In this document: piece after piece, positions 10,586-32,000 of the stretch | Layout: every line of letters starts with the position of its first letter | Position numbering within the stretch: position 1 is the first letter of the stretch | From: Tannerellaceae bacterium | GTDB taxonomy: Bacteria; Bacteroidota; Bacteroidia; Bacteroidales; Tannerellaceae | NCBI GenBank assembly: GCA_036734445.1 | Contig: DAIMYP010000003.1 | Span: 63,854-95,853 of the forward strand | DNA length: 32,000 nucleotides | Direction: 5' to 3' | The notes under the pieces: generated by a model | Seen by the model: only the letters and a program-made list of their open reading frames with translations | The model's database searches: none | What the model was told of the DNA's origin: nothing | Position numbers and translations under genes: made by a program

Positions 10586-11170
10586 ATGGATGAGGTCAAT
10601 CTAATTCGCGGATTAAAACAAGGTTCAAAGTCGGCATTTGATGCTATCTATGCGATGTATTTCAAACGCCTGTTTGTTTATTGTCTAAGGTTTACCAAAT
10701 CAAGTGAAGATGCAGAGGAAATAGTACAGGATGTTTTCCTTCGTTTATGGAATATTAGAGAATCGATTCAGCAAGAAGATACATTGCGTTCGCTTTTGTT
10801 TATTATTTCAAAAAATTATCTGATCAATGCTTTTCATAAAAATATTAATTCCCCAGTTTACGAAGATTATGTGAATTACCAAGAGCAGATTGCTGTTGAT
10901 AATATCAGTCGGATGGAATATGAGGAATTTGTACATCAGTTGAATCATGCAATGTCGCGATTACCCAAAACACAACAGCTGGTTATTGAACTTTCACGTT
11001 TTAAACAATTGTCGAATAAAGAAGTTGCTGAGCGGTTATCTTTGAGTGAACAGACGGTGAAGAATCAGCTGTCATTGGGGTTGAAGATGCTTCGCTCGTT
11101 ATTGGGAAATGCACCTATTATAGGGCTATTTTTTATTTTAAATGACCTTTTTCGGTACGTCGACAAATAA
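10586..11170 (+). CDS. ECF-type RNA polymerase sigma-70 family factor
   Basis: 194 aa. Region 2 is FDAIYAMYFKRLFVYCLRFTKSSEDAEEIVQDVFLRLW. Region 4 is LPKTQQLVIELSRFKQLSNKEVAERLSLSEQTVKNQLSLGLKML. A FecR-like gene follows immediately. Confidence 0.92.
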   Translation: MDEVNLIRGLKQGSKSAFDAIYAMYFKRLFVYCLRFTKSSEDAEEIVQDVFLRLWNIRESIQQEDTLRSLLFIISKNYLINAFHKNINSPVYEDYVNYQEQIAVDNISRMEYEEFVHQLNHAMSRLPKTQQLVIELSRFKQLSNKEVAERLSLSEQTVKNQLSLGLKMLRSLLGNAPIIGLFFILNDLFRYVDK

Positions 11171-11178
11171 TTATTGTC
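11148..11178 (+). promoter_or_regulatory. bipartite element TTTTTCGGTAC-N15-TTGTC, candidate ECF-dependent promoter for the anti-sigma gene
   Basis: The 11-mer at 11148-11158 and TTGTC at 11174-11178 have the same sequence and spacing as the copy upstream of susC. The element lies inside the 3' end of the sigma gene. TTGTC ends 20 nt before ATG 11199. Confidence 0.4.
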
Positions 11179-11198
11179 ATTATTAGTAAAGAAGGAAT

Positions 11199-12173
11199 AT
11201 GAAAGACTTATATAAGAAATATGTAACGGATCACTTGACACATCAAGAACTTGAAATGCTGAAGAATACAGATCCTTCCATTTTAGATCGAGAACTTGAG
11301 CGATTCATGGAAGAGGAGTGGCAGAGTGATATGTTGGATTCATCAAATGTCTCCGAGGAACTGATGGTTCGTGTCAAATCGCAATTGGATGAGAAGATTC
11401 AACTTCGACGTTTGAGCATGCCTCTTTATGTGAAAGTATTTGCTTGGGCTGCAGCAGTTTTATTGCCGTTGCTTATTCTTTCGACTTTTTATCTTTATCA
11501 TGAAAATCATCAGTTGGTTTCTGAAGAAATGGTTGTAGCTACAGGTTTGGGTGAACGGGCAACTATTACATTGCCTGATGCTACAAAAGTGACACTTAAT
11601 GCAGATTCGAAGTTGACCTATATTCCAAAGGTATATAATAAGAAAGAAAGAAAAATCAAGTTTTCAGGAGAAGGTTATTTCGAAGTTTCAAAAGATAAAG
11701 AACGTCCGTTCCTTATTGATGCAAAAGGATTAAATATTACTGTTCTTGGAACAACCTTTGATTTGTTAGTGAGGAATAATGAAAAAACGGCTGAATTATC
11801 TCTTGAATCAGGTAAAGTGATGTTTCGTTCGCTATTAAGCGGAAAATTTGTAATCTTGAATCCAAACCAAAAAGTCGTTCTTGATCAGTCGACTGGCAAT
11901 TTGGTGGTTATGAAAGACGAATCTCAATATGTGGCACCATGGAAACGAAATGAATTGGTATTTCGAAATGCTCCTTTGTCTTCAGTTCTTTCGAGCATAG
12001 AAAAAACGTATGGGGTACATATTGTTATGGGTTGTAAGGAATGTAATTCAGATTTGTTCACGGGAACTTTAGTGACAAATGATATTAATGGTGTATTGGA
12101 AGTAATTGAAGAAGCTTATCAGCTTAAGGCGGTAATGAACGGACATGAGATTTCTATCGTTAAAGTAAAATGA
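11199..12173 (+). CDS. FecR-family anti-sigma factor / transmembrane sensor
   Basis: 324 aa. It has a single transmembrane helix (VFAWAAAVLLPLLILSTFYLY) and a FecR periplasmic domain (GEGYFEVSKDKERPFLIDAKGLNITVLGTTFDL). It lies between an ECF sigma gene and an STN-domain SusC gene. Confidence 0.9.
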   Translation: MKDLYKKYVTDHLTHQELEMLKNTDPSILDRELERFMEEEWQSDMLDSSNVSEELMVRVKSQLDEKIQLRRLSMPLYVKVFAWAAAVLLPLLILSTFYLYHENHQLVSEEMVVATGLGERATITLPDATKVTLNADSKLTYIPKVYNKKERKIKFSGEGYFEVSKDKERPFLIDAKGLNITVLGTTFDLLVRNNEKTAELSLESGKVMFRSLLSGKFVILNPNQKVVLDQSTGNLVVMKDESQYVAPWKRNELVFRNAPLSSVLSSIEKTYGVHIVMGCKECNSDLFTGTLVTNDINGVLEVIEEAYQLKAVMNGHEISIVKVK

Positions 12174-12192
12174 TATTTGTGTATTATCGGAG

Positions 12193-12227
12193 AACCATTT
12201 CTTTTCATCGATTAGAAATGGTTTTTT
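12193..12227 (+). terminator. rho-independent terminator after the anti-sigma gene
   Basis: A perfect 10-bp stem pairs AACCATTTCT (12193-12202) with AGAAATGGTT (12214-12223) across an 11-nt loop. The stem runs into TTTTTT (12222-12227). Confidence 0.6.
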
Positions 12228-12246
12228 ATGTTATATAGCATATTAT

Positions 12247-12277
12247 TTTTTCGGTACATGTTTAAAAAAGGCTTGTC
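12247..12277 (+). promoter_or_regulatory. bipartite element TTTTTCGGTAC-N15-TTGTC, candidate ECF-dependent promoter for susC/susD and the GH genes
   Basis: The 11-mer at 12247-12257 and TTGTC at 12273-12277 are identical in blocks and spacing to 11148-11178. The element lies downstream of the 12193-12227 terminator and about 60 nt upstream of ATG 12337. Confidence 0.4.
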
Positions 12278-12336
12278 TTTACCGTCAAAGATCTAACAAA
12301 GGTCACAATTCATTATTAACTTTAATTTTGAGTAAG

Positions 12337-15300
12337 ATGGATAAACATCGAAAAGTGAATTTTTTCGCAGTATTGTTCTTTTTGTCTTTATTCTGTTGCT
12401 TCAGCATTCAGGGACAAGAACAGAAAGTAGCAGTTAATTTGAAAAATGCTTCTTTGAAAGAAGTATTTAGTGTAATTGAGAAACAAACATCTTATCGTTT
12501 CTCGTATCGCAGTGCCGCTATTGATAACCGAAAGGATATCAATGTACAGAAAAGTGGTGTATCAGTTACAACGGTGCTTGATGAAGCTTTGAAAGGACGT
12601 GATTTGGAATACAAGATTGTCTCATCGAAGATGATTGTCATTTCAAATAAAGTCACCAATAAGGCTATACCTTTCACCAAGCAGAAGAGGGTCTCGGGTG
12701 TTATCACGGATACAAAAGGAGAACCGATAATTGGGGCAAATGTGGCTGTGAAAGGAACATCAAATGGTACTATTACGGATATTGACGGGAAGTTCGACAT
12801 CGAAGTTCCTGCCAATACCACATTGAAAATTTCATACATTGGCTATCAGCCTATGGAAATAAATATTGGCAACAAGAGTACGATAGATATAAAACTTTCT
12901 GAAGATACGCAGGCTTTGGATGAAATAGTTGTTGTTGGTTATGGTACGCAAAAAAAATCGGATGTTTCTGGTTCTGTAACGACCGTTTCGGGTGAAAAAC
13001 TTGCTAAAATTCCTACAGCCAATGCAGAAACTGCACTTCAGGGAATGGCTCCTGGTTTGTCAGTCAATTTCGGAAGTGGTTCGGCTGGATCGACAGGAAC
13101 CTTACAAGTGCGTGGTGTAACAACGTGGGGAACCGATAACTCGCCTTTGGTTATTATTGATGGTGTACCTGGGGATATGTCGTATTTGAATCCTGAAGAT
13201 ATTAAATCAATGTCTGTATTGAAAGATGCAGCAACAGCTGCTATTTATGGTGCACGGGCTGCCGCAGGTGTGATTTTGATTGAGACGAATAGAGGAACAG
13301 TACAAGCACCAAGAATCCAATTCTCAGCTTATTTAGGAATGGATGACTTGCCTAAACGTATGGAAGTCTGCAATTCTGCAGAATTTGTAAAAGTTCGCAA
13401 GATGGCTCTTTCAAATGCAGGAATAGCTGAAAGCCGTTGGCCGAAATATATTTCTGCATATGAGAAGGATCCTACTCAGTTCGCTGATACGGATTGGCAG
13501 AAGGAATACTACCGCAGAGGACTTACTCAAAAATATAATGTTGGTTATACGAGCGGTAATGAAGTGACAAATGTAGCACTTTCTACATTCTATTCAAAGA
13601 CCGATGCTATTGTCATTGGTACAGGTGATACAAAATATGGTTTCCGACTCAACTCAGATGTTAAGAGAGGCAACTTTAAAATGGGTGAATCTGTAAGCTA
13701 TAGTCGCTGGGAATCAGATTTAGAAGCCAGCTCTGGTTTTCCAAGCATGTATCAGGTAACAAATATAGAACCACTTGCTTTTGTTTATGATAAAAATAAC
13801 GATGGTGGATACGGTGGAGCTATTGCCGGAATGGGAATGTCGGATGCTGCAAACGTTGTAGGTTATAATAAACTTGTTGAAAACACAGCAGCTAATGACT
13901 ATATAGCAGCATCAGGTTATCTTCAGTACGAACCGATTAAAGATTTGGTTTTAAAATTCAAAGCAAGTCGAAATATTTATTTCGGAAGTTCAAGAAACTT
14001 TACTCCAACTTATGAATTGGGCGTGATGAAAGTAAATAATCGTGCATCATTATATGAAGAGCGGACAAAGACAATGAGCGATTTGTTGGAATTTACAGCC
14101 AATTGGAATAAAACTTTTCTACAGAAACATAGCGTACAAGCTCTATTTGGTATGTCACAGGAAGAAAATCGCTATGACGGCATCAATGCTTCAGGTAAAA
14201 AGTTTGAAAATAATGAAATGAGTTTACTAGGCCAGGCACAGGAGGATTTTGCCATTGGAGGAACTAAAACACGCAGTGGTTTACGGTCAGTGTTTGGACG
14301 TTTGAATTATAATTATTTGATGCGTTATATGATTATGGCCTCTTGCCGTTATGATGGTTCTTCACGTTTTGCCGATGGAAACAAATGGGGCGTTTTCCCG
14401 TCGGTCTCTGCCGGGTGGAATATCGCCAATGAGCCATTTTGGGGAAACATGAAAGAAACGGTTTCGACTTTAAAATTACGTTTGAGTTATGGTGGTTTGG
14501 GTAACCAGTCTATAGGTTTGTATAAATATATTCCTAAGTTGTCATCAAACACCGATTATTTGAATTATCCTTTTGGAGGGAAAGATGTTTCTTTAGGTTA
14601 TGCAATAACCGAGTTGCCATCATCTAACATTAAATGGGAGACGACTATTTATAAGAATGTAGGTATTGATGTAGGTCTTTGGAATAATAAACTTGAACTG
14701 TCAGCTGAAGCTTATATAAAGAATACAAAAGACATGCTTTCGACAAAGAATATTAGTCTTTGTACCGGATTTGGTTCATTAACGGTTAATGACGGAAAGC
14801 TGCGTACTACTGGTTTTGAAATGCAGGCAATTTATCATGGAAATGCAGGCAAGCTGAAATATGATCTGGATATGAATCTCACACATTATAAGAGTGTACT
14901 GAAGTCGATGGCCGATCCGAATTATCTTTATGAATATGGCGCTATGAGAACGTATGTCGGAGGCGAGATCGGTGAGTTCTGGGTAGTCAAGACCGATGGT
15001 ATTTTCCAAAGTGCACAAGAAGTAACTGAGTGGAACAAGATACATGGCTATTATGACAAGAATAACGAATGGCATGGTATGCAACCGTCAGCTAAACCGG
15101 GAGATATTAAATTTATTGACCAGAATGGCGATGGAATGTTGGATTCAAGTGATAAGGTGAAAGTGGGAAGTGGAACGCCAAAAGTAGCTTTGGCATTTAA
15201 TGTGAATCTGACCTATGGCGATTTTGATTTAGTAGCTAATTTCTATGGACATTTTGGTGTGAAACGTTATAATTATACCAAGTATCAGTTGCAGCGCATG

Positions 15301-15669
15301 GACCAAGTGTTTAATTATGGCAAGGATGCATTGAATGCATGGACTCCTGAGAATACCGATACCGATGTTCCGCGTGCCGTACAAGGCGATCCGAACAAAA
15401 ATAATCGCGTGTCGGACCGATATGTAGAGAATGGCGATTATTTGCGTCTGAATAATTTGCAGTTGGGTTATAATCTTCCTGCAAGTACTTGTCACAGCCT
15501 AGGCATTTCCAACTTACGTGTATATATTGGAGGTGAACGTTTGTTTACTATAACAGGATATAAGGGCTACGATCCTTCAACAGGTTCGACAGTTGGACGC
15601 ATCGGCTATGATTATGCTTCAACACCTCTGAGTCGTACCTATATGGCTGGCATCAAATTTAGTTTCTAA
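12337..15669 (+). CDS. SusC/RagA-family TonB-dependent outer-membrane transporter with an N-terminal STN signalling domain (transducer type)
   Basis: The order of domains is a signal peptide, an STN-like segment (VNLKNASLKEVFSVIEKQTSYRFSY...LEYKIVSSKMIVIS), and a carboxypeptidase-regulatory-like domain (VSGVITDTKGEPIIGANVAVKGTSNGTITDIDGKFDI). These are followed by a plug (DEIVVVGYGTQKKSDVSGSV) and a terminal beta-strand ending in F. I moved the start from TTG 12328 to ATG 12337. Confidence 0.95.
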   Translation: MDKHRKVNFFAVLFFLSLFCCFSIQGQEQKVAVNLKNASLKEVFSVIEKQTSYRFSYRSAAIDNRKDINVQKSGVSVTTVLDEALKGRDLEYKIVSSKMIVISNKVTNKAIPFTKQKRVSGVITDTKGEPIIGANVAVKGTSNGTITDIDGKFDIEVPANTTLKISYIGYQPMEINIGNKSTIDIKLSEDTQALDEIVVVGYGTQKKSDVSGSVTTVSGEKLAKIPTANAETALQGMAPGLSVNFGSGSAGSTGTLQVRGVTTWGTDNSPLVIIDGVPGDMSYLNPEDIKSMSVLKDAATAAIYGARAAAGVILIETNRGTVQAPRIQFSAYLGMDDLPKRMEVCNSAEFVKVRKMALSNAGIAESRWPKYISAYEKDPTQFADTDWQKEYYRRGLTQKYNVGYTSGNEVTNVALSTFYSKTDAIVIGTGDTKYGFRLNSDVKRGNFKMGESVSYSRWESDLEASSGFPSMYQVTNIEPLAFVYDKNNDGGYGGAIAGMGMSDAANVVGYNKLVENTAANDYIAASGYLQYEPIKDLVLKFKASRNIYFGSSRNFTPTYELGVMKVNNRASLYEERTKTMSDLLEFTANWNKTFLQKHSVQALFGMSQEENRYDGINASGKKFENNEMSLLGQAQEDFAIGGTKTRSGLRSVFGRLNYNYLMRYMIMASCRYDGSSRFADGNKWGVFPSVSAGWNIANEPFWGNMKETVSTLKLRLSYGGLGNQSIGLYKYIPKLSSNTDYLNYPFGGKDVSLGYAITELPSSNIKWETTIYKNVGIDVGLWNNKLELSAEAYIKNTKDMLSTKNISLCTGFGSLTVNDGKLRTTGFEMQAIYHGNAGKLKYDLDMNLTHYKSVLKSMADPNYLYEYGAMRTYVGGEIGEFWVVKTDGIFQSAQEVTEWNKIHGYYDKNNEWHGMQPSAKPGDIKFIDQNGDGMLDSSDKVKVGSGTPKVALAFNVNLTYGDFDLVANFYGHFGVKRYNYTKYQLQRMDQVFNYGKDALNAWTPENTDTDVPRAVQGDPNKNNRVSDRYVENGDYLRLNNLQLGYNLPASTCHSLGISNLRVYIGGERLFTITGYKGYDPSTGSTVGRIGYDYASTPLSRTYMAGIKFSF

Positions 15670-15687
15670 CATTAAAAAGTAAGCAAA

Positions 15688-17220
15688 ATGAAAATAAAGA
15701 ATATCATATTAAGTACAGCTGTTTTATCGAATCTGCTTTTAGCATCCTGTACAGGCTCATTCCTCGATGAGGATAGAAACCCGAATTCACTTTCTCCAAA
15801 TATATTTTGGAAAAGTGAGGCAGATATAATGAAAGGGCTTACAAGTGCGTATGCTTATATGCAGCCGAACGTAGATTGGGCAATTCCATATGAAAGATAT
15901 ATTGTAATAGACAACTACAGGAGCGACGAGATTGATTTTCGTGCCGATGTTAGTTCATGGATGAGCATTGCAATGTTTACAAATGATCCCACAAATTCGG
16001 TTACCGAAACGGAATGGACAAATTTGTATACAGGTATCAATTATGCAAATCAGTGCATTGATAATATTCCAAATGTGCCTGATGATGACTCAAAGTTGGG
16101 TGATGTCAAGAAGCAGGCTCTTGCTGAAGCTCGTTTCCTACGTGCCTATTATTATTATCGCCTTTATTTGAACTTTGGCGAGAATGTACCTATTTACACG
16201 CATGAACTAAAAGGAACAGATGAGGAATTTTATCCTAAACAGGCTACCAACGGCGAACTGGTCAGCTTTATTGAGTCTGAATTGAAGGATATTCAGTCAG
16301 ATCTTCCTGAAAAGTATACGTCAGAAAGCGACGGAGGACGCATAACGCGTTATGCAGCTGCAGCTGTACTTGGTAAGTTTTATATGTTCCGTCACGAAAC
16401 AGCGAAAGCTGAACAGGAATTCAAAAAATTGATTGGAAAATACGAACTGATGGATAACTATGCAGATAACTTCGACGGACTGCATAAGAATAATAAAGAA
16501 TCGGTACTTGAAGTTCAGTTTACTGGTAATATGACAGGCGGCCATTATGAATACAATTTATTCGCTATTCATTTAGCTCCGTTCTCGGCTTATGATGGTG
16601 GTTATGAAGAAGCATATCCCTCGAATTGGCTTTTTGATTTGATGAAGACAGATAAGACAGTTGATGGGAAATATAGCCCTCGAACGTTGGCAACCATAAT
16701 TTTTGACGATCCTGATTGTCGCCCTTCTTATTATGAGGATGGCAAATCGTTCTCTGATTATCATGAACCGGGACAATTCTTCTGGCATAAATATGTAACA
16801 TGGGATAAATCCTTAAGTTCTGACTGGTATTACAGCGGATATAATGTGACATTAATTCGTTATGCCGACATTCTGTTGCTTTATGCGGAATGTTTGAACG
16901 ACAGGGGTGCAACGTCTGAAGCTATTCGATATATTAATCAGGTTCGTAATCGTGTTAATGTACCAGAACTGCCTGTATCTATGTCTAAAGATCAGGTCTT
17001 GAAACATTTGCAGGATGTTGAACGTCCATGCGAGCTGGCATTAGAAGGTGATCGCTGGTATGACTTGATTCGTTGGAATATTGTTGGAACTACTTTGACC
17101 TCTCATAAGAAACCTTACGTAGAAAACTATGTAGACAGTAAACACAAATTGTTCCCTATTCCTCATAAGGAATTCTTGATGAATCCAACGTGGGAACAGA
17201 ATCCAAATTTCAGTAAATAA
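15688..17220 (+). CDS. SusD/RagB-family glycan-binding outer-membrane lipoprotein
   Basis: 510 aa with a lipobox (LLASC). SusD-type TPR-like motifs are EARFLRAYYYYRLYLNFG, IRYADILLLYAECLN and RPCELALEGDRWYDLIRW. It starts 18 nt after susC. Confidence 0.93.
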   Translation: MKIKNIILSTAVLSNLLLASCTGSFLDEDRNPNSLSPNIFWKSEADIMKGLTSAYAYMQPNVDWAIPYERYIVIDNYRSDEIDFRADVSSWMSIAMFTNDPTNSVTETEWTNLYTGINYANQCIDNIPNVPDDDSKLGDVKKQALAEARFLRAYYYYRLYLNFGENVPIYTHELKGTDEEFYPKQATNGELVSFIESELKDIQSDLPEKYTSESDGGRITRYAAAAVLGKFYMFRHETAKAEQEFKKLIGKYELMDNYADNFDGLHKNNKESVLEVQFTGNMTGGHYEYNLFAIHLAPFSAYDGGYEEAYPSNWLFDLMKTDKTVDGKYSPRTLATIIFDDPDCRPSYYEDGKSFSDYHEPGQFFWHKYVTWDKSLSSDWYYSGYNVTLIRYADILLLYAECLNDRGATSEAIRYINQVRNRVNVPELPVSMSKDQVLKHLQDVERPCELALEGDRWYDLIRWNIVGTTLTSHKKPYVENYVDSKHKLFPIPHKEFLMNPTWEQNPNFSK

Positions 17221-17267
17221 AGCTTTTTATCAGGATTTCTTTTTTATATAGATATTTCTATAACTAT

Positions 17268-17292
17268 TCTCCGGAAAACTATTTTCCGGAGA
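17268..17292 (+). terminator. perfect 11-bp stem-loop between susD and the GH genes (intra-operon attenuator or RNA-stability hairpin)
   Basis: TCTCCGGAAAA-CTA-TTTTCCGGAGA forms a perfect stem. No clean T-run follows it (AAGTTTTA). Confidence 0.4.
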
Positions 17293-17318
17293 AAGTTTTA
17301 AATCACTTATTTAAATGT

Positions 17319-22567
<5,249 letters not shown>

Positions 22568-22759
22568 AAATAAAATGTTTAGGAAGGGTTGATTTATAAA
22601 AGCGTTTTTGTTCCCTTCCAAAATTTGTAGTAGAGTGTAAACGCCGTGTTATTTTATCTCTGAAGTTCGGATGATTGAAAAACGCGGCGTAATTTTATTA
22701 TTTATGTTCGAATAGTATGAAAACTCCGCTTTGCTACTCCATTAGAATTGATATAATAC

Positions 22760-22815
22760 AAAAACGCGTTTTGCTTTCGAAGCCTGATATCAGGCAGAAA
22801 GAAAACGCGTTTTTT
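22760..22815. terminator. long nested hairpin, probably a bidirectional terminator between the convergent GH2 and GH36 genes
   Basis: The outer arms are AAAAACGCGTTTTGCTTTC and GAAAGAAAACGCGTTTTT, which differ by one indel. The apical palindrome is GCCTGATATCAGGC (22782-22795). An A-run precedes and a T-run follows the structure, so it resembles a terminator on both strands. Confidence 0.5.
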
Positions 22816-22871
22816 ATATAGTGATAAATATGAAATCCTATTGCACCTCAAGACTGATTGCCCGTCGATGT

Positions 22872-25109
22872 TTATTCGGCTGTAATCTCATACATGTGAC
22901 TTGTTGTCTGCATAGTGCTGAAAACATTCAGTCCCACTTTCATCAGATAATCGCCCGAATAAATTTTCGGACCTTCATTGCCGGGCATCATCGGAGGCAT
23001 CATCGGACGATCGCCTTTGGATCTTGGCATTTGATTGATTTCCTCAATCTTATAGTTCTTTGTCGGATCCAAACCTTGCAGTTTGACAGGCATCATCTTT
23101 TCTTGGAAGCGTGGATGAATATCGAAAGCGTAAAGAACGGCCTTGTTTTTATTGTCGCCTACATACATTGTGGCTGTATGGTTGCCTTCGTATGGAGAAA
23201 CAAGACGATACATATCGCCATCGAGGGTGATATTCTCCAAACGTTTGTAGTTGGCTACAGCAGTCTTGCAGTATGTCATTTCGTCGGGCGTCAGATTCTT
23301 TAGGCTCATGTCGAAGCCTAACTTGCAAAGCATGGCAACGTCTGTGCGGAACTTGATGCTTGTAGTTTTGTTCCAATCAGTTACATGTGCGCAAATCGCC
23401 TTAGCAGGGAAGAACTGCGAGAAGCCCCATTGGATAAAGAGACGTTCGATCGGATCAGTATCATCACTTGCCCAGAACTCGGTAAAATATTTCAATGCTT
23501 CATAGTCGCAACGGGCACCGCCGCCTGAACAAAGCATAATCGGAAGGTTAGGATATTTGGCTTTCACACGATTGAACACATTGTAAAGACCTCGTACATA
23601 TTTTACATACAACTCATTCTGTTTCGTTTTTAGATATGGTGAGTATATGTTGGTGATCGGGCTGTTGCAATCCCATTTGAAGAAGGCAAGGTTAGGATTT
23701 TCAGTCATTATATTGTCCAAAACTCCGAACACATGGTCTTGTACCTTCGGATTACTCAAGTCCAGAACCAACTGATTGCGGAAATAATAGGTTTCGCGAT
23801 TTGGCTGATGGATAACCCAGTCTGGATGTTTCTCAAAGAGCTCACTCTTCGGGTTTACCATCTCAGGTTCAATCCAGATGCCGAACTTCACACCAGCATC
23901 TTTAGCCGCTTTAACCAAATATGGAACGCCATTAGGCAGTTTGCTGTGAGTTACTTCCCAATCACCTAGTCCGGCATGGTCGTCTTTGCGTGGATATTTG
24001 TTGCCGAACCATCCGTCGTCAAGCAGAAACATATCAACACCTAATTCTTTTGTTTCTTTCATCAGGCCGCTCAAAATTTCTTCATTAAAATTGAAACCGG
24101 TGTTTTCCCAGTTGTTCAGCAAAGTCATACGACTGCCTTTGCCGTCTTTCAACTGATAATTGCGAGCCCAATTGTGAAAATTGCGGCTTGCCTGGCCTGT
24201 ACCACTTTGGCTGAGAGTGAAAATAAATTCAGGTGTGTTGAAAAGTTCGCCCGGTTGCAGATCGTAAATAGAGGCATACGGATTGATGCCTGAACTGATA
24301 CGAAGAACGCCTGCGTCGTCTACTTCGAAAGTGAAGCGGAAATTGCCTGTCCAACCGATTGTACCAAGCAGAACTTCACCTTGCTGTTCATTTGCCGGAG
24401 CATTGACACCCAATTCGAAAAATGGTTGAAGCATCATTGCTGCACGCGAACCCAATTTGGTGTCGAGCACTTTTTTGCCGAACTCAAGCTTTTGTGTGTG
24501 CATTCCTACTTCCTTTGCCCAATTGCCATCGAACTGAGTCAAATAATAGGATGCATTGTCAAGATAGAGCATTGATGAAGCATATCGGCTCATCAGAATA
24601 GCACCTTTCTCGGAATGCGAAATCTCAGTCCATGTCTTGAATATGTTTTCTTTGGCATAAGTAATGTAATGAATCTTTACTGTAACTGGGTAGACATCAT
24701 CTTTAAGTGTGATAATCGTTTCTGTCACATTGTTGTCCTGATTCTTGACATCAGATGAAACATACTTCAGATAAGTGGTCATGTTTCCATCGACATGCGT
24801 GATTGCCAGTGCCGATTCATAATAATCTTCAGCTCCGGAAGTTTGATACACTTCGCCGCTGTTTACACCCATTGGAGGCATTCCTGGTCCACCGCGACGT
24901 ACATCTTTAAATTGGTTCAAATCAGACTCATTTATCAGTTTGACTCCAAAATACTTTTGATAGAGTCGCCCGTTCTGGCCGACATTCAATATCAAGTCAG
25001 TTTCATTAGTAGAAATGCGGATTAGTTGAGAACCATCCGCTGCAAGTGCCTTTACATTCATAAAGAACAAACTTAAAATAAATAATGCAATGATTTTTTT
25101 CATGGCCAT
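22872..25109 (-). CDS. GH36 alpha-galactosidase, secreted
   Basis: 745 aa with a signal peptide. GH36 hallmarks are VDMFLLDDGWFG, FFKWDCNSPI, MLCSGGGARCDYEAL and FWASDDTDPIERLFIQ. The start is ATG 25109 or ATG 25103. Confidence 0.9.
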   Translation of the reverse strand: MAMKKIIALFILSLFFMNVKALAADGSQLIRISTNETDLILNVGQNGRLYQKYFGVKLINESDLNQFKDVRRGGPGMPPMGVNSGEVYQTSGAEDYYESALAITHVDGNMTTYLKYVSSDVKNQDNNVTETIITLKDDVYPVTVKIHYITYAKENIFKTWTEISHSEKGAILMSRYASSMLYLDNASYYLTQFDGNWAKEVGMHTQKLEFGKKVLDTKLGSRAAMMLQPFFELGVNAPANEQQGEVLLGTIGWTGNFRFTFEVDDAGVLRISSGINPYASIYDLQPGELFNTPEFIFTLSQSGTGQASRNFHNWARNYQLKDGKGSRMTLLNNWENTGFNFNEEILSGLMKETKELGVDMFLLDDGWFGNKYPRKDDHAGLGDWEVTHSKLPNGVPYLVKAAKDAGVKFGIWIEPEMVNPKSELFEKHPDWVIHQPNRETYYFRNQLVLDLSNPKVQDHVFGVLDNIMTENPNLAFFKWDCNSPITNIYSPYLKTKQNELYVKYVRGLYNVFNRVKAKYPNLPIMLCSGGGARCDYEALKYFTEFWASDDTDPIERLFIQWGFSQFFPAKAICAHVTDWNKTTSIKFRTDVAMLCKLGFDMSLKNLTPDEMTYCKTAVANYKRLENITLDGDMYRLVSPYEGNHTATMYVGDNKNKAVLYAFDIHPRFQEKMMPVKLQGLDPTKNYKIEEINQMPRSKGDRPMMPPMMPGNEGPKIYSGDYLMKVGLNVFSTMQTTSHMYEITAE

Positions 25110-25140
25110 TGTGATTAATTAGTAATTCTTTAATTGGATG

Positions 25141-25148
25141 CAAATATA
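25141..25148 (-). promoter_or_regulatory. candidate -7 promoter box for the GH36 gene
   Basis: Plus-strand CAAATATA reads TATATTTG on the minus strand and matches TAnnTTTG. It lies 31 nt upstream of ATG 25109. Confidence 0.35.
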
Positions 25149-25221
25149 ATTAAGTTTCTTTGAATTTCTTATAAAAATAGGTTTTTGCTTGTGTAAAAAC
25201 TTCCGTTTTATAAAAAATGCC

Positions 25222-25229
25222 TATATTTG
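25222..25229 (+). promoter_or_regulatory. candidate -7 promoter box for the cysQ...sulfotransferase operon
   Basis: TATATTTG matches TAnnTTTG and lies 31 nt upstream of ATG 25261. Confidence 0.4.
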
Positions 25230-25260
25230 TGTACTGACAAACTAAGAAAAAAACTGAATA

Positions 25261-26082
25261 ATGGACGAATATTTAAATTATCTATATGTGGCTATTCGTG
25301 CTGCAATCGATGCCGGAAGGGCAATTATGGAAATTTATGATAGTACGAAGGAAAATATTGTCGTTGAATGGAAAGCTGATAATTCGCCTTTGACTCAAGC
25401 CGATAAGCAGGCTCATAAAATCATATCCGTTATTCTTTCAGCAACACCGTTTCCGGTTCTGAGCGAAGAAGGGAAGATGATTCCTTTTGCAGAGCGTAAA
25501 AAGTGGAAAACACTGTGGATAGTTGATCCACTTGATGGGACGAAAGAATTTATCAAACGTAATGGTGAGTTTACCGTAAATATAGCATTAGTGAAAGAAG
25601 GAGTTCCAGTGATGGGCGTGATTTATATTCCTGTTCGTGAGGAACTTTATTTCGCTACAGAAACTTTGGGAGCTTACAAGCTGAATAAAATTAATGGTAT
25701 CAGTCAGCCGTCGGTGAACGACATGATTGCAAAAGCTTTGAAATTGCCAAATGCAACAGGACATCAAGGAATTGTTGTCGTAGCTTCTCGTTCACATCTG
25801 AACGAAGAGACGATGAGTTATATTGACAACCTGCGCCGTCAAGGACAACCTGTAACATTGATTAGTAGCGGAAGCAGTCTGAAAATTTGCCTAGTAGCCG
25901 AAGGATCTGCTGATATTTATCCGCGTTTTGCGCCAACGATGGAATGGGACACAGCTGCTGGACATGCAATAGCTCGCGCTGCCGGTTGTCAAATTTATCA
26001 TACTGATGAGATGACGCCATTGAATTACAATAAAGAAGATTTACATAATCCTTGGTTCATCGTCAAAGCGCAGCAGGCATGA
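25261..26082 (+). CDS. cysQ: 3'(2'),5'-bisphosphate nucleotidase (PAP phosphatase)
   Basis: 273 aa of the inositol-monophosphatase fold. CysQ-specific stretches are LWIVDPLDGTKEFIKRNGEFTVNIALV and SSLKICLVAEGSADIYPRFAPTMEWDTAAGHAIARAAG. Confidence 0.9.
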   Translation: MDEYLNYLYVAIRAAIDAGRAIMEIYDSTKENIVVEWKADNSPLTQADKQAHKIISVILSATPFPVLSEEGKMIPFAERKKWKTLWIVDPLDGTKEFIKRNGEFTVNIALVKEGVPVMGVIYIPVREELYFATETLGAYKLNKINGISQPSVNDMIAKALKLPNATGHQGIVVVASRSHLNEETMSYIDNLRRQGQPVTLISSGSSLKICLVAEGSADIYPRFAPTMEWDTAAGHAIARAAGCQIYHTDEMTPLNYNKEDLHNPWFIVKAQQA

Positions 26083-27629
26083 GTTTTGAAATCATATTTG
26101 TTTTGTTGGCGTTGATCGGAATGGTCGCCGCATTGATATGGGATAGAATGAGGCCTGGAATGGTGCTTCTAACTGTCGTTGTTGTATTTATGTGTGCAGG
26201 TATTCTGACACCAAAAGAGATGCTTGAAGGATTTAGTAACAAAGGAATGATCACTGTCGGACTGCTGTTTTTGGTGAGTGAAGGAATCCGACAGAGTGGA
26301 GCTTTAGGGCAGTTGGTTAAAAAACTTCTTCCTGTACAAAAAACGACAATTTTCAAGTCGCAACTCCGTATTCTTCCTTCTATTGCTTTCATCTCTGCCT
26401 TTCTTAATAATACACCTGTTGTTGTCATCTTCGCCCCGATTGTTAAGCGTTGGGCAGAATCGATAAAACTTCCAGCTACAAAATTTCTTATTCCACTTTC
26501 TTACGTTACTATCCTGGGCGGTTTGTGCACATTGATTGGAACGTCTACGAATCTTGTTGTTGATGGTATGATTCAAGATGCCGGATATGAAGGGTTTTCC
26601 ATGTTCGAACTGGGAAAGATTGGTATTTTTGTAGTCCTTTTTGGTATAACATATTTGTTTATTTTTTCCAATAAACTTCTTCCTGATTCGCGCAAAGATG
26701 CTTACGAAGAGGAAGACGAAAGCAATACAGGCAATCTTCGAAGAGTTGAAGCTGTGTTGGGTCCGCGTTTTCCAGGCATCAACAAGTCGTTGGGTGATTT
26801 TAATTTCACACGTCATTATGGTGCAATTGTTAAGGAAGTTAGAAGCGGCGGACAGTGTTATTCGCACGATTTGGAAAGGGTTGTTCTTCATGAAGGCGAT
26901 ACGCTGATTCTCTGGGCCGATGATTCGTTTGCTGCCACATGGGGAGAGTCGAGCGTGTTTCTATTGCTCGCCAATAGTAAAGACAAAGAGGAACCGTTCT
27001 CGAAGAAAAAACGGTGGCTGGCACTCGGATTGCTCATCTTTATGATAACGGGAGCAACGGTTGGCGAATTGCCGTTTATGAAAGAGATGTTGCCCGGTAT
27101 GCATTTGGATATGTTTTTCTTTGTTTGTGTCACAACGATTATCATGGCATGGACGAAAATTTTCCCTCCAAAAAAATATACCAAATATATATCATGGGAT
27201 ATTTTGATAACGATTGCATGCGCGTTTGCTATTAGTAAAGCAATGGAAAATTCAGGCGTTGCTGCTTGGTTGGCTCAAAATATTATCGGATTGTCGCATA
27301 ATATGGGGCCGTATGCATTGTTGGCTATTGTTTATATTATTACTAACGTTTTTACGGAACTTATCACGAATAATGCCGCGGCGGCTTTGAGTTTCCCTAT
27401 CGGACTTTCTGTCGCAACTCAATTAGGCGTGAATCCGACGCCTTTCTTTGTGGCTATTTGTGTAGCGGCATCAGCAAGTTTCAGTTCGCCGATAGGTTAT
27501 CAGACGAATTTGATTGTACAAGGTATTGGCGGTTATAAGTTTACTGATTTTGTGAAAATCGGTTTGCCTTTGAATGTGATTACATTTTTGGTTTCAGTGA
27601 TTCTGATTCCAATGATTTGGAGTTTTTAA
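26079..27629 (+). CDS. SLC13/DASS-family anion permease with a central TrkA-C-like insert
   Basis: About 516 aa and polytopic. The two halves carry hairpin-type motifs (LIGTSTNLVV; ELITNNAAAALSFPIG; SFSSPIGYQTNLIV). The cytoplasmic insert RRVEAVLGPRFPGINKSLGDF...VVLHEGDTLILWADD resembles a TrkA-C domain. I set the start to ATG 26079, which overlaps the cysQ stop as ATGA. Confidence 0.8.
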   Translation: MSFEIIFVLLALIGMVAALIWDRMRPGMVLLTVVVVFMCAGILTPKEMLEGFSNKGMITVGLLFLVSEGIRQSGALGQLVKKLLPVQKTTIFKSQLRILPSIAFISAFLNNTPVVVIFAPIVKRWAESIKLPATKFLIPLSYVTILGGLCTLIGTSTNLVVDGMIQDAGYEGFSMFELGKIGIFVVLFGITYLFIFSNKLLPDSRKDAYEEEDESNTGNLRRVEAVLGPRFPGINKSLGDFNFTRHYGAIVKEVRSGGQCYSHDLERVVLHEGDTLILWADDSFAATWGESSVFLLLANSKDKEEPFSKKKRWLALGLLIFMITGATVGELPFMKEMLPGMHLDMFFFVCVTTIIMAWTKIFPPKKYTKYISWDILITIACAFAISKAMENSGVAAWLAQNIIGLSHNMGPYALLAIVYIITNVFTELITNNAAAALSFPIGLSVATQLGVNPTPFFVAICVAASASFSSPIGYQTNLIVQGIGGYKFTDFVKIGLPLNVITFLVSVILIPMIWSF

Positions 27630-27638
27630 GTTTTAAGG

Positions 27639-28250
27639 ATGAAAGAAGAACAACAACATATTTATCCAGTCTTCGACAAGATGTTGAAGCGTGAAGACAA
27701 AGAACAATTGTTGAAGCAACGCAGTGTGATGATTTGGTTCACAGGGCTAAGTGGTTCTGGAAAGAGTACACTGGCAATTGCTTTGGAGCGTGAATTGCAC
27801 CGGCATGGTTTGCTTTGTCGCATCCTGGATGGTGATAATATTCGTTCTGGAATTAATAATAATCTGGGTTTTACAGAAGCTGATCGTACAGAAAACATAC
27901 GTCGGATTGCGGAGATCGGAAAACTTTTTGTTGATACGGGAATTATCACGATTGCTGCATTTATCAGTCCGATGAATAGTTTGCGCGAGATGGCTGCTTC
28001 TATCATTGGCAAAAACAATTTCCTTGAAATATATGTTAATACATCGTTAGCAGAATGCGAACGACGCGATGTGAAAGGTTTATATGCCAAAGCACGTCGC
28101 GGTGAGATAAAAGAATTCACGGGCATTTCGGCACCTTTTGAAGCACCATTGGATCCTGATTTAGTATTGGATACTTCAATATTAAGCGTGCAGCAGTCTG
28201 TGAATGAATTATTAAAATTGATTTTACCCAGGGTAATGGTAGATAAATGA
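27639..28250 (+). CDS. cysC: adenylyl-sulfate (APS) kinase
   Basis: 203 aa. It has the P-loop [14 protein letters not shown], plus [27 protein letters not shown] and AAFISP. Confidence 0.93.
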
Positions 28251-28251
28251 T

Positions 28252-29160
28252 ATGTCAGAATATAAATTAAGTCATTTGCAAGAGTTGGAGGCTGAGTCCA
28301 TTTATATTATTCGTGAAGTGGCTGCCGAATTTCAGAATCCTGTGATGCTCTATTCAATAGGTAAGGATTCGTCGGTGATGGTGCGTCTTGCCGAGAAGGC
28401 TTTTGCACCGGGGAAAGTGCCATTTCCTTTGATGCATATCGATTCAAAATGGAAGTTTAAGGAGATGATTCAGTTCCGCGATGAGTATGCGAAGAAATAT
28501 GGTTGGAATCTGATCGTTGAATCGAACATGGAGGCTTTTCGTGCTGGCGTTGGTCCGTTTACACACGGAAGCAAAGTTCATACTGATTTAATGAAGACGC
28601 AGGCTTTGTTACATGGTCTGGATAAATATAAGTTCGACGCTGCCTTTGGTGGTGCGCGTCGCGATGAGGAAAAAAGTCGTGCTAAAGAACGAATCTTTTC
28701 ATTCCGCGACAAGTTCCATCAATGGGATCCGAAAAATCAGCGCCCAGAATTGTGGGACATCTATAATGCTCGTGTCCATAAGGGTGAAAGCATTCGTGTT
28801 TTTCCTCTTTCGAACTGGACAGAATTGGATATTTGGCAATATATTCGTTTGGAGCAGATTCCAATAGTTCCGCTTTATTTTGCTAAGGAACGTCCATGCG
28901 TGGAAATTGATGGAAATTTGATTATGGCTGATGATGATCGTCTACCCGAAAAGTATCGTGACAAAATTAAAATGAGAAAGGTTCGTTTTCGTACTTTAGG
29001 CTGCTGGCCACTGACGGGAGCTGTTGAAAGCGATGCAGATACAATCGAAAAGATTGTGGAAGAGATGATGACGACAACCAAAAGCGAACGCACGACGCGA
29101 GTCATTGATTTTGATCAGGATTCGAGTATGGAACAAAAGAAACGAGAAGGATATTTCTAA
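28252..29160 (+). CDS. cysD: sulfate adenylyltransferase subunit 2
   Basis: 302 aa. [46 protein letters not shown] is near-identical in pattern to enterobacterial CysD. The C-terminus is KKREGYF. It starts 1 nt after cysC. Confidence 0.95.
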
Positions 29161-29207
29161 TTGTCAGAATAATAGACGCAAGACAATAAACAGAATATGA
29201 AATTTAG

Positions 29208-30692
29208 ATGAAAGGAGAACAACAAAATATAAATTCAAAAAGCCAGTTAAATATCAAGGAATTTCTTGATCGCGACGAACAGAAAGATTTGCTTCGTTTT
29301 CTAACTGCCGGTTCGGTGGATGATGGCAAATCAACTCTGATTGGGCGTTTGCTATTCGACAGCAAGAAGATTTATGAAGATCAACTCGATGCGCTCGAAC
29401 GCGACAGTAAGCGTATGGGCAATGCGGGTAATCATATCGATTATGCATTGTTGTTGGATGGACTAAGGGCTGAACGCGAAGAAGGAATTACCATTGATGT
29501 GGCTTATCGTTATTTCAGTACGAATAATCGAAAATTTATCATTGCCGATACGCCTGGTCATGAGCAATATACGCGTAATATGATAACTGGTGGTTCAACG
29601 GCAAATCTGGCCATTATTCTTGTCGATGCCAGATTGGGTGTGATTACACAGACGCGCCGTCATACTTTTCTAGTTTCGCTTCTTGGTATTCGTCATTTGG
29701 TATTGGCGGTGAACAAAATGGACCTTGTGAATTTTGATCAGCAGACTTTTGACAAGATTGTTGCCGATTATAAGACTTTTGTTGCTCCATTGGATATTCC
29801 AGATGTGACATGTATACCGCTTTCGGCTTTGGATGGCGACAATGTTGTTACAAAAAGCGAACGAACACCGTGGTATACAGGAAAATCATTGCTCGGTTTT
29901 TTGGAAACAGTTCCTATTGATCTTGATCGCAATTATAGCGATTTACGTTATCCTGTGCAATATGTTCTGCGTCCGAATCAGAATTTTCGTGGTTTTAGTG
30001 GTAAGGTGGCGAGCGGTATTGTGCGTAAAGGTGATATAGTGAAAGCTCTCCCTTCAGGTAAAATCTCGAAAGTGAAAAGCATCGTAACATATGATGGCGA
30101 ATTGCAGCAGGCTTTTCCTCCACAATGTGTTACACTGACCTTGGAAGATGAAATAGATGTTTCTCGAGGCGAAATGTTGGTTCATCCGGATAATCTTCCA
30201 ATGATCGGACGACATTTCAAAGCAATGCTTGTCTGGATGGATGAGGAACCGATGGATATGAACAAGCCGTTTTATATTAAACAGACGACGAATGAAACTC
30301 GTGCTCATGTAGATGAAATCCATTATAAAGTTAATGTGAATACGATGGAACATCTGTCGCTTGAGAACGGATTGCTGACAGAGGCGTCGCTTCCCATGCA
30401 GTTGAACGAGATTGCTTGTGTCACATTTACTACAGGAAAGACGTTGTTTTTCGATTCCTATAAACAGAACAGGCAGACAGGTTCGTTTATTTTGATTGAT
30501 CCGATTACAAACAACACTTCGGCAGTTGGAATGATGATTGCACTTGACGATTCTCAATCAGTTACCGATTATGTTAATGGGTTGACAATCGATTTGCAGG
30601 AGTTGAAAATAGGCGAGGAGCATTACGAGGCTATCCGTAAAGTTTGTGACGAATTGCAAAAACAAGGTTGTAAAGTGAATTTGATAGAATAA
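29208..30692 (+). CDS. cysN: sulfate adenylyltransferase subunit 1 (GTPase)
   Basis: 494 aa. The GTPase motifs are G1 [15 protein letters not shown]3 [12 protein letters not shown] and G4 NKMD. EF-Tu-like domains II and III follow. There is no fused APS-kinase domain. Confidence 0.93.
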
Positions 30693-30764
30693 AAATAGAG
30701 GTAAAGACAGGGCTTTCGACAATAAAGTCGGAAGCAAACTGTGGATTATCAATAGTGTATTAAT

Positions 30765-31877
30765 ATGGGTTTATTGGAGTTTAGTAAATTACCGATCAAC
30801 ACATTAGTTGGTGCCGATTGGAGGACATTCAAGGAAGTGACGGCCAATATGTCTATCGATAAAGAGTATCGTAGTAAGTTCTATTTGACAAAGGCCGTTT
30901 GCCGATTGTTGAGTTTACTTGTTCCTATCGAAAACGCTTGTTACCAGAAGTTAATGAATAATCCGATAGAAATGGATCCGTTATTTATCCTTGGTCACTG
31001 GCGTAGTGGAACTACATTCGTTCATAATGTTTTTGCTCAAGATCAGCATTTTGGCTACAACACAACTTATCAGACTGTTTTCCCAAATCTGATGCTTTGG
31101 GGACAATCTTTTTTTAAGAAGAACATGACTTTCCTGATGCCGGACAGAAGACCTACGGATAATATGGAACTCAAAGTGGATCTTCCTCAGGAAGAGGAAT
31201 TTGCTTTGGCAAACATGATGCCGTATACGTATTATAATTTCTGGTTTTTTCCTAGACATATGCTGGAATATTGTGATCGCTACATGTTGCTCGATAATAT
31301 TAATGAACATGAGCTGCAAGTTTTTAAAGAAACTTTTCTCAAGCTGATTAAAGTGTCACTTTGGAATACACATGGAGTCCAATTTTTGAGTAAAAATCCG
31401 CCTCATACGGGGCGTGTCAGACTTTTACTGGAGATGTTTCCGAACGCGAAGTTTATTTATATGAAACGCAATCCATATACAGTTTTCGAAAGTACACGCA
31501 GTTTTTTCAAAAATACAATTGTTCCTCTTCGTCTTCAGAATATATCGGAAGAACAATTTGAAAGCAATTTGTTAGAGGTCTATCGTCGTCTGTTTTATAA
31601 ATTCGAAGAACAAAAAGTGCGTATTCCTAAAGGAAATCTTGTTGAAGTGAAGTTTGAGGAATTTGAACGTGAACCTATGGAAATGACAGAAGCAATATAT
31701 CAACAATTAGATTTGCCAGGATTTGCTGAATCTAAAGATCGGATTTTTAAATACATCCATTTAAAAGATGGCTATTCGAAAAATCATTATAAATATGATG
31801 ACAACACACTGAAGACAGTGGAAGAAAATTGGGGAATGGCGCTTAAAGCTTGGAATTATTCGTTGGAACAATCATAG
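30765..31877 (+). CDS. PAPS-dependent sulfotransferase (bacterial Sulfotransfer_3-like)
   Basis: 370 aa. The 5'-phosphosulfate-binding loop is LGHWRSGTTFVHN (GHWRSGTT = nt 30993-31016). A 3'-phosphate-binding-like segment, FIYMKRNPYTVFES, is analogous to the YxxRNxxDxxxS motif of cytosolic sulfotransferases. It is the last complete gene of the PAPS-synthesis operon. Confidence 0.8.
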   Translation: MGLLEFSKLPINTLVGADWRTFKEVTANMSIDKEYRSKFYLTKAVCRLLSLLVPIENACYQKLMNNPIEMDPLFILGHWRSGTTFVHNVFAQDQHFGYNTTYQTVFPNLMLWGQSFFKKNMTFLMPDRRPTDNMELKVDLPQEEEFALANMMPYTYYNFWFFPRHMLEYCDRYMLLDNINEHELQVFKETFLKLIKVSLWNTHGVQFLSKNPPHTGRVRLLLEMFPNAKFIYMKRNPYTVFESTRSFFKNTIVPLRLQNISEEQFESNLLEVYRRLFYKFEEQKVRIPKGNLVEVKFEEFEREPMEMTEAIYQQLDLPGFAESKDRIFKYIHLKDGYSKNHYKYDDNTLKTVEENWGMALKAWNYSLEQS

Positions 31878-31891
31878 AATTTGATGAAATT

Positions 31892-32000
31892 ATGAAGAGT
31901 CGTTCTGTTTGTTTTTTTATTTTATTTCTATTAGATTGCTTGCTGTTTGAAGGATATGCTCAGCGTGTTACCTCATTGTTGTATGGCGATATGGACAATT
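31892..32000 (+). CDS. secreted protein of unknown function, N-terminal 36 aa only (runs off the right edge)
   Basis: This ORF is truncated and absent from the track. My translation is MKSRSVCFFILFLLDCLLFEGYAQRVTSLLYGDMDN, which is signal-peptide-like. It starts 14 nt after the sulfotransferase stop. Confidence 0.45.
   Translation, partial: MKSRSVCFFILFLLDCLLFEGYAQRVTSLLYGDMDN

Follow-up and report, generated by a model that had tools for sequence, protein, structure and literature searches.

A 32,000-nt stretch of DNA from a Tannerellaceae bacterium (contig DAIMYP010000003.1, positions 63,854 to 95,853), referred to below in its entirety as the window, carries a block of six genes: cysQ, a permease gene, cysC, cysD, cysN and a sulfotransferase gene. 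We read this block, with a probability of roughly 0.8, as the Parabacteroides-like (Tannerellaceae) orthologue of the BT0411-BT0416 cluster of Bacteroides thetaiotaomicron, that is, as one transcription unit that makes 3'-phosphoadenosine 5'-phosphosulfate (PAPS) and sulfates steroids. The original prediction for this DNA had proposed a sulfonation module that imports an anion, activates sulfate, transfers the sulfo group to an acceptor and clears the by-product 3'-phosphoadenosine 5'-phosphate (PAP), and both the gene identities and the orthology with BT_0416 lend support to such a module. It had also stated that the terminal sulfotransferase of the BT0411-BT0416 cluster produces cholesterol sulfate. 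This is borne out by Le et al. (2022, PMC9417993): BT_0416 (BtSULT) is a PAPS-dependent cholesterol sulfotransferase, and its conversion of cholesterol into the sulfate was shown in vitro as well as in E. coli and mice. The adjoining genes Bt_0411-Bt_0415 are PAPS genes, and the same cluster is present in B. ovatus and B. fragilis (PMC9417993).

When gut Bacteroidales make cholesterol sulfate and other steroid sulfates, these compounds change the cholesterol levels of the host and the migration of its immune cells, and it is therefore useful to know which lineages carry the pathway. The BtSULT cluster is reportedly the subject of a second 2022 report, by Yao et al. In the window, the cluster is complete, lies in a Parabacteroides-like lineage and encodes a sulfotransferase whose active-site core is near-identical to that of the characterised enzyme. 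The original prediction held that, if the window enzyme were an orthologue, the system class would already be described; this applies here, as we accept the orthology and the cluster is known. Read in this way, the block would involve no new principle and would be a further, correctly read instance of a described system. The features of the block are collected in Table 1.

Table 1. Features of the sulfonation block and its borders in the window, with the amino acid identity of each product to its counterpart in L081, the B. thetaiotaomicron-type locus.
Feature	Position	Strand	Evidence	Identity to L081
Bacteroidetes-type -7 promoter box TATATTTG (TAnnTTTG), putative	25222..25229	+	first base 39 nt 5' of cysQ ATG	
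cysQ, 3'(2'),5'-bisphosphate nucleotidase (PAP hydrolysis), 273 aa	25261..26082	+	TIGR01331 279 bits (cutoff 228.8); Pfam Inositol_P E = 2e-49	62.5%
DASS/SLC13-like ion-transporter permease, presumed sulfate importer, 516 aa	26079..27629	+	Pfam CitMHS 213 bits, Na_sulph_symp 55 bits	75%
cysC, adenosine 5'-phosphosulfate (APS) kinase, 203 aa	27639..28250	+	NF003013 246 bits (cutoff 163); Pfam APS_kinase E = 5e-63	75%
cysD, ATP sulfurylase small subunit, 302 aa	28252..29160	+	NF009214 498 bits (cutoff 413)	92%
cysN, ATP sulfurylase GTPase subunit, 494 aa	29208..30692	+	NF003478 700 bits (cutoff 590)	75%
Stable RNA hairpin in the 72-nt cysN-sulfotransferase spacer (predicted)	30700..30750	+	minimum free energy -19.7 kcal/mol, z = -4.7	
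PAPS-dependent sulfotransferase, taken for the BT_0416 (BtSULT) orthologue, 370 aa	30765..31877	+	Pfam Sulfotransfer_3 E = 8e-41	67.9% (BT_0416 type; 368 aa, one gap)
5' end of secreted PCMD-domain (PF13201) protein gene, 36 codons with signal peptide	31892..32000	+	cut by window end	

Gene identities and probable orthology with the BT0411-BT0416 cluster

All six genes lie on the plus strand, and the open reading frame (ORF) calls match exactly the junctions of -4, 9, 1, 47 and 72 nt described for them in the original prediction. The permease ATG falls inside an ATGA overlap with the cysQ stop codon, and independent gene calls on the metagenome contig L086, which has the same sequence, concur. 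The CysQ, CysC, CysD and CysN assignments held, each protein scoring above its curated NCBIfam equivalog or subfamily cutoff, and cysN and cysC are separate genes with no CysN-CysC fusion. The identification of the second gene as an SLC13/DASS permease stood in part: its product passes the Pfam CitMHS and Na_sulph_symp models but falls below the cutoff of TIGR00785 (104 bits against 199). The nearest solved structures are VcINDY (5e-20), SLC13A5 and the Na+/sulfate cotransporter SLC13A1 (2e-12), with SLC13A2 and SLC13A3 also among the relatives, and the permease is best called a DASS/SLC13-like member of the ion-transporter superfamily. A TrkA_C domain in its central loop is not claimed, the match being faint (E = 0.04) and below cutoff.

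The 370-aa product of the last gene matched Sulfotransfer_3 (PF13469) at 141 bits (cutoff 27) and PF00685 at 30.6 bits (cutoff 22). The PAPS-binding loop GHWRSGTT and the 3'-phosphate motif YMKRNPYTVFES pointed out earlier are present at residues 77-84 and 232-243, respectively; nearly all of their positions are invariant among 12 homologues, and both motifs align with those of the mycobacterial sulfotransferase STF9. An AlphaFold2 model of moderate quality (predicted local distance difference test, pLDDT, 71; predicted template modelling score, pTM, 0.77) places GHWRSGTT between a strand at residues 70-77 and a helix at 83-90, and KRNPYTVFES (234-243) between a strand at 229-234 and a helix at 237-255. 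The top Foldseek matches of this model in the PDB were all sulfotransferases (STF9, STF1, the CurM sulfotransferase, TPST2 and SULT2A1), the best being STF9 with a TM-score of 0.66 and E = 1.5e-8. By this model, the 370-aa protein is a sulfotransferase in fold.

For comparison with other genomes, 80 loci were kept from a genome scan of species-representative genomes. B. thetaiotaomicron is absent by name from these loci and from a second protein search, and a cluster listing gave only the sister species B. faecis. We therefore took as the B. thetaiotaomicron-type locus the one, L081, that was identified by the gene-specific parts of the published BT_0416 cloning primers; both primers match its sulfotransferase gene with zero mismatches, one exactly at codon 2 and the other at the stop codon. 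The families encoded in L081 are, in order, Inositol_P, CitMHS, APS_kinase, PAPS_reduct (CysD), GTP_EFTU (CysN) and Sulfotransfer_3; the parallel in gene order pointed out in the original prediction is real and covers all six genes. The comparison of the 370-aa protein with BT0416 was made with the L081 protein as reference and gave the full-length identity listed in Table 1. Identity is not spread evenly: segments 81-160 and 201-240 are 80-95% identical to L081 and hold both PAPS motifs and the most conserved stretch of the family (141-160, 95% identical), and the peripheral helices vary. The neighbouring genes diverge in step (62-92% identity), and we take the window enzyme for the orthologue of BT_0416 and not for a stray paralogue.

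Synteny across Bacteroidales agrees with this picture, the six-gene order being found in about 60 of the 80 species loci and in several families of the order. It is carried by Parabacteroides, Coprobacter, Bacteroides, Phocaeicola and Mediterranea, as well as by metagenome-assembled genomes (MAGs) labelled Prevotella, Rikenellaceae and Odoribacter. Among named genomes, that of Parabacteroides sp. AM08-6 (L001) comes closest, with a sulfotransferase 80% and a CysD 96% identical to those of the window, and there too a divergent GH36 gene lies 5' of cysQ. The cluster has been reported in P. distasonis (PMC11503954), and a review states that sulfotransferase activity in P. merdae was confirmed by Yao et al. 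(PMC12667688).

Window positions 20765-32000 are 99.9% identical to the metagenome contigs L086-L088, and metagenome contigs are the only place where this organism was encountered. No sulfotransferase among the matches listed by the homologue search exceeded 88% identity, and an exact look-up in the same collection returned 54 blocks with the identical protein, their contigs reaching more than 1 Mb in length; judged by the homologue search alone, this organism would seem less well sampled than it is. Four loci from Alloprevotella, Bacteroidales and Bacteroidaceae MAGs (L057, L063, L070 and L080) have a 65-66% identical sulfotransferase homologue without cys genes on its 5' side; the cys genes of L070 are on the opposite strand, about 5 kb away.

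Expression signals and the gene downstream of the sulfotransferase

The TAnnTTTG box that had been claimed upstream of the operon is present at 25222-25229 and reads TATATTTG. By itself the motif is weak evidence, since the window has 47 copies where 32.6 +/- 5 would be expected. Of 56 related loci, however, 44 have a box of this type within 150 nt 5' of cysQ, and its spacing to cysQ in Parabacteroides is 30-40 nt, as in the window; since the box is kept at this position, the copy at 25222-25229 is probably the operon promoter. The GH36 gene 5' of cysQ is encoded on the minus strand with its start at 25109, and the 151-nt gap between the two genes contains two TATATTTG boxes back to back, at 25141-25148 (minus strand) and 25222-25229 (plus strand). 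Facing away from each other, these look like a divergent promoter pair.

Within the block, a motif scan found no TAnnTTTG box in the 47-nt or 72-nt intergenic gaps, and sigma-70-type sites occurred at chance (22 against 18.5 expected, with a model ill-suited to Bacteroidota); on these grounds, an internal promoter 5' of the sulfotransferase gene was rejected. The original prediction saw no convincing internal terminator, and our scan agrees, with 5 terminator-like sites against 5.6 expected, all of them intragenic and none in the gaps. No Rfam families or tRNAs were matched in the window. A riboswitch or leader RNA 5' of cysQ was likewise rejected, given the lack of an Rfam match and a 5' untranslated region too short for a riboswitch.

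The spacer between cysN and the sulfotransferase gene measures 72 nt in the window, compared with 4-40 nt in relatives, and contains the predicted hairpin listed in Table 1. None of 200 shuffled sequences folded equally well. The hairpin was seen only in the copies of this organism (L086-L088) and in none of 85 other loci. It was rejected as an intrinsic terminator for want of a U-tract on its 3' side, and as a repeated mobile element because it is a single copy limited to this organism. It may act as a processing or stability element, or as an attenuator.

A seventh gene, overlooked in the original prediction, starts 14 nt past the sulfotransferase stop codon and runs off the end of the window. 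The complete gene is available in L086-L088 (L086:11128-12087) and encodes a protein of 319 aa with a signal peptide and a PF13201 domain (PCMD, "putative carbohydrate metabolism domain"). Two homologues match Pfam PCMD with E = 4e-23 to 8e-26, and among solved structures the only relatives are "putative glycoside hydrolases" from structural genomics, with weak E-values. A PCMD homologue lies directly 3' of the sulfotransferase gene in 56 of the 73 loci with room to judge, including L081, where it occupies the BT0417 position. The four MAG loci without cys genes 5' of the sulfotransferase (L057, L063, L070 and L080) have no PCMD gene 3' of it. Outside the block running from cysQ to the PCMD gene, the surroundings vary by genus, with GH36, a SPOR-domain gene or proB on the 5' side and rplU, ligA, a LacI-family gene or an OmpA-family gene on the 3' side. 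In both Bacteroidaceae and Tannerellaceae, the PCMD gene has been inherited together with the sulfotransferase as these surroundings changed.

The transcription unit most likely continues into the PCMD gene. In L086, this gene is followed by a 348-nt spacer (12088-12435), in which a simple scan revealed no canonical terminator, and then by rplU-rpmA. Several AT-rich inverted repeats were spotted in the spacer by eye; they are based on TTCGAATG/CATTCGAA (for example CATTTGATTCGAA...TTCGAATCAAATG) and may represent the operon end or a ribosomal protein gene leader. A tentative and rather doubtful extension is that the functional unit comprises all seven genes, the secreted PCMD protein being an unrecognised extracytoplasmic component of steroid sulfonation, for instance in sterol capture or in handling of the sulfated product. 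No literature on a PCMD gene beside the sulfotransferase was found in the library searched, and this conserved downstream gene, unmentioned in the accessible papers, is the one point that might repay further work.

The rest of the window encodes serine hydroxymethyltransferase, regulators, topoisomerase III and a glycan-related locus. The latter is of polysaccharide utilization locus type and occupies 10586-22567 on the plus strand, with genes for an extracytoplasmic function (ECF) sigma factor, a FecR anti-sigma factor, an STN-domain SusC-like TonB receptor, SusD, a GH63/MGH1-like hydrolase and a GH2 beta-galactosidase. It is followed by the minus-strand GH36 alpha-galactosidase gene, and it is not kept beside the sulfonation block in other genera.

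Fate of PAPS and choice of acceptor

In the proposed pathway, the genes would be expressed as a single transcription unit from the TATATTTG box, and sulfate would enter the cell through the DASS/SLC13-type permease. CysD and CysN, together with CysC, would convert sulfate and ATP to PAPS; the proteins are assigned here by family, and the chemistry is established knowledge. The Sulfotransfer_3 enzyme would then transfer the sulfo group of PAPS to a hydroxyl acceptor. Judged from the orthology with BtSULT, whose preference is for steroids with a flat A/B ring (PMC13449962), the 3-OH of cholesterol or of other such steroids would be the most likely acceptor. The PAP left over would be hydrolysed by CysQ, again on its family assignment. 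The reported lack of reductive sulfur genes was confirmed for the window, no cysH or sulfite reductase gene being found among its ORFs of at least 130 aa, where the sole match to the PAPS_reduct fold is CysD.

Several points weigh against reading the block as a steroid-sulfating unit. Sulfate is suggested as the permease substrate by operon context and by distant similarity to SLC13A1, and the DASS model scored under its cutoff. Lactose was an inducer of Bt_0412 in B. thetaiotaomicron but left Bt_0416 uninduced (PMC9417993), so that the sulfotransferase does not always follow the regulation of the PAPS genes; in the present organism, the hairpin between cysN and the sulfotransferase gene could decouple the expression of its neighbours. 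PAPS may serve further enzymes too. An identity of 68% to the BT_0416 type would leave room for an altered acceptor range, and the AlphaFold2 model has low confidence at residues 99-161, where conservation is highest and the acceptor is presumed to bind. Lastly, the absence of cysH and sulfite reductase is established for the 32-kb window and not for the genome.

The alternative that fares best keeps the machinery and changes its main acceptor, which might be bile acids, hydroxy fatty acids, a glycan or a lipid of the cell's own envelope; the PCMD protein might then be part of that alternative pathway. Besides the 68% identity to the BT_0416 type, this finds some encouragement in ErSULT, a gut Sulfotransfer_3 enzyme that acts on hydroxy fatty acids, and in the labelled bile acid sulfates also made by a strain with a BtSULT homologue (PMC13449962). 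The retention of a PCMD gene beside the sulfotransferase and the presence of glycoside hydrolase and SusC/SusD genes adjoining the operon point the same way. We consider such a shift unlikely, however. The conserved core is near-identical to that of the BT_0416 type, including the 95% identical stretch at 141-160, and synteny across families backs the orthology. A Parabacteroides homologue is reported active by the review cited above (PMC12667688), and the adjoining glycan genes do not accompany the block in other genera.

The reach of the reductase search, which covered the 32-kb window, also bears on a second alternative, that of ordinary assimilatory activation. Here, cysDNC and cysQ would feed PAPS and sulfite reductases encoded elsewhere, leading to cysteine, and the sulfotransferase would be a mere neighbour. 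CysD, CysN, CysC and CysQ are canonical assimilation enzymes, and some Bacteroidota channel PAPS-derived sulfite into sulfonolipids (PMC13449962). Nevertheless, we regard this as highly improbable, as the window contains no gene for either kind of reductase and about 60 species have kept the sulfotransferase together with the cys genes despite changes in the flanks. The requirement of Bacteroides species for reduced sulfur for growth counts against assimilation as well. B. thetaiotaomicron, with the same cluster, has ATP sulfurylase and APS kinase but no PAPS- or APS-reducing enzyme (PMC11610557). Least credible of all is that APS or PAPS is itself the product, supplied to sulfite-reducing neighbours such as Bilophila, as has been hypothesised for B. 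thetaiotaomicron from co-culture transcriptomics and Bilophila growth on APS (PMC11610557), since the block encodes no adenine-nucleotide exporter, and CysQ and the sulfotransferase argue for use of PAPS inside the cell.

Comparison with known systems

Taken as a PAPS-making, steroid-sulfating unit, the block shares with the BT0411-BT0416 cluster its six genes in the same order and on the same strand, its tight junctions and the PCMD gene 3' of the sulfotransferase. The two differ in their hosts (Bacteroidaceae there, Tannerellaceae-like here), in their flanking genes and in the cysN-sulfotransferase spacer, which is 11 nt in B. thetaiotaomicron against 72 nt with a stable hairpin in the window. 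The Parabacteroides copies (P. distasonis, P. merdae, P. gordonii and sp. AM08-6) have sulfotransferases 73-80% and CysD proteins 94-96% identical to those of the window, and no species-representative genome exceeds 80% sulfotransferase identity.

More distant sulfotransferases share parts of the system. ErSULT of Eubacterium ramulus is also a PAPS-dependent Sulfotransfer_3 enzyme of a gut bacterium, but it acts on another acceptor class, hydroxy fatty acids, and is non-homologous to BtSULT by its authors' description (PMC13449962). The best relatives of solved structure are the mycobacterial STF9 (PDB 2z6v) and STF1 (PDB 2zq5), with a sequence E = 1e-10 and TM-scores of 0.60-0.66. Their 5'-phosphosulfate and 3'-phosphate binding motifs are common to the window enzyme, whereas identity is about 15%, the biological acceptors are different and there is no linked cysQ-permease-cysCDN. 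Human SULT2A1 and SULT2B1 likewise carry out PAPS-dependent sulfation of steroid hydroxyls, and SULT2A1 is among the fold matches. They belong to Sulfotransfer_1 rather than Sulfotransfer_3, and with identities of about 13-14% and TM-scores of 0.35-0.37 they are therefore functional analogues and not close relatives. Finally, cysDNC and cysQ of E. coli provide the same PAPS-making and PAP-clearing enzymes, those of the window scoring above the NCBIfam equivalog cutoffs. In E. coli, PAPS passes to CysH and then through CysIJ to sulfide, whereas in the window the sulfotransferase occupies the place of a linked reductase.

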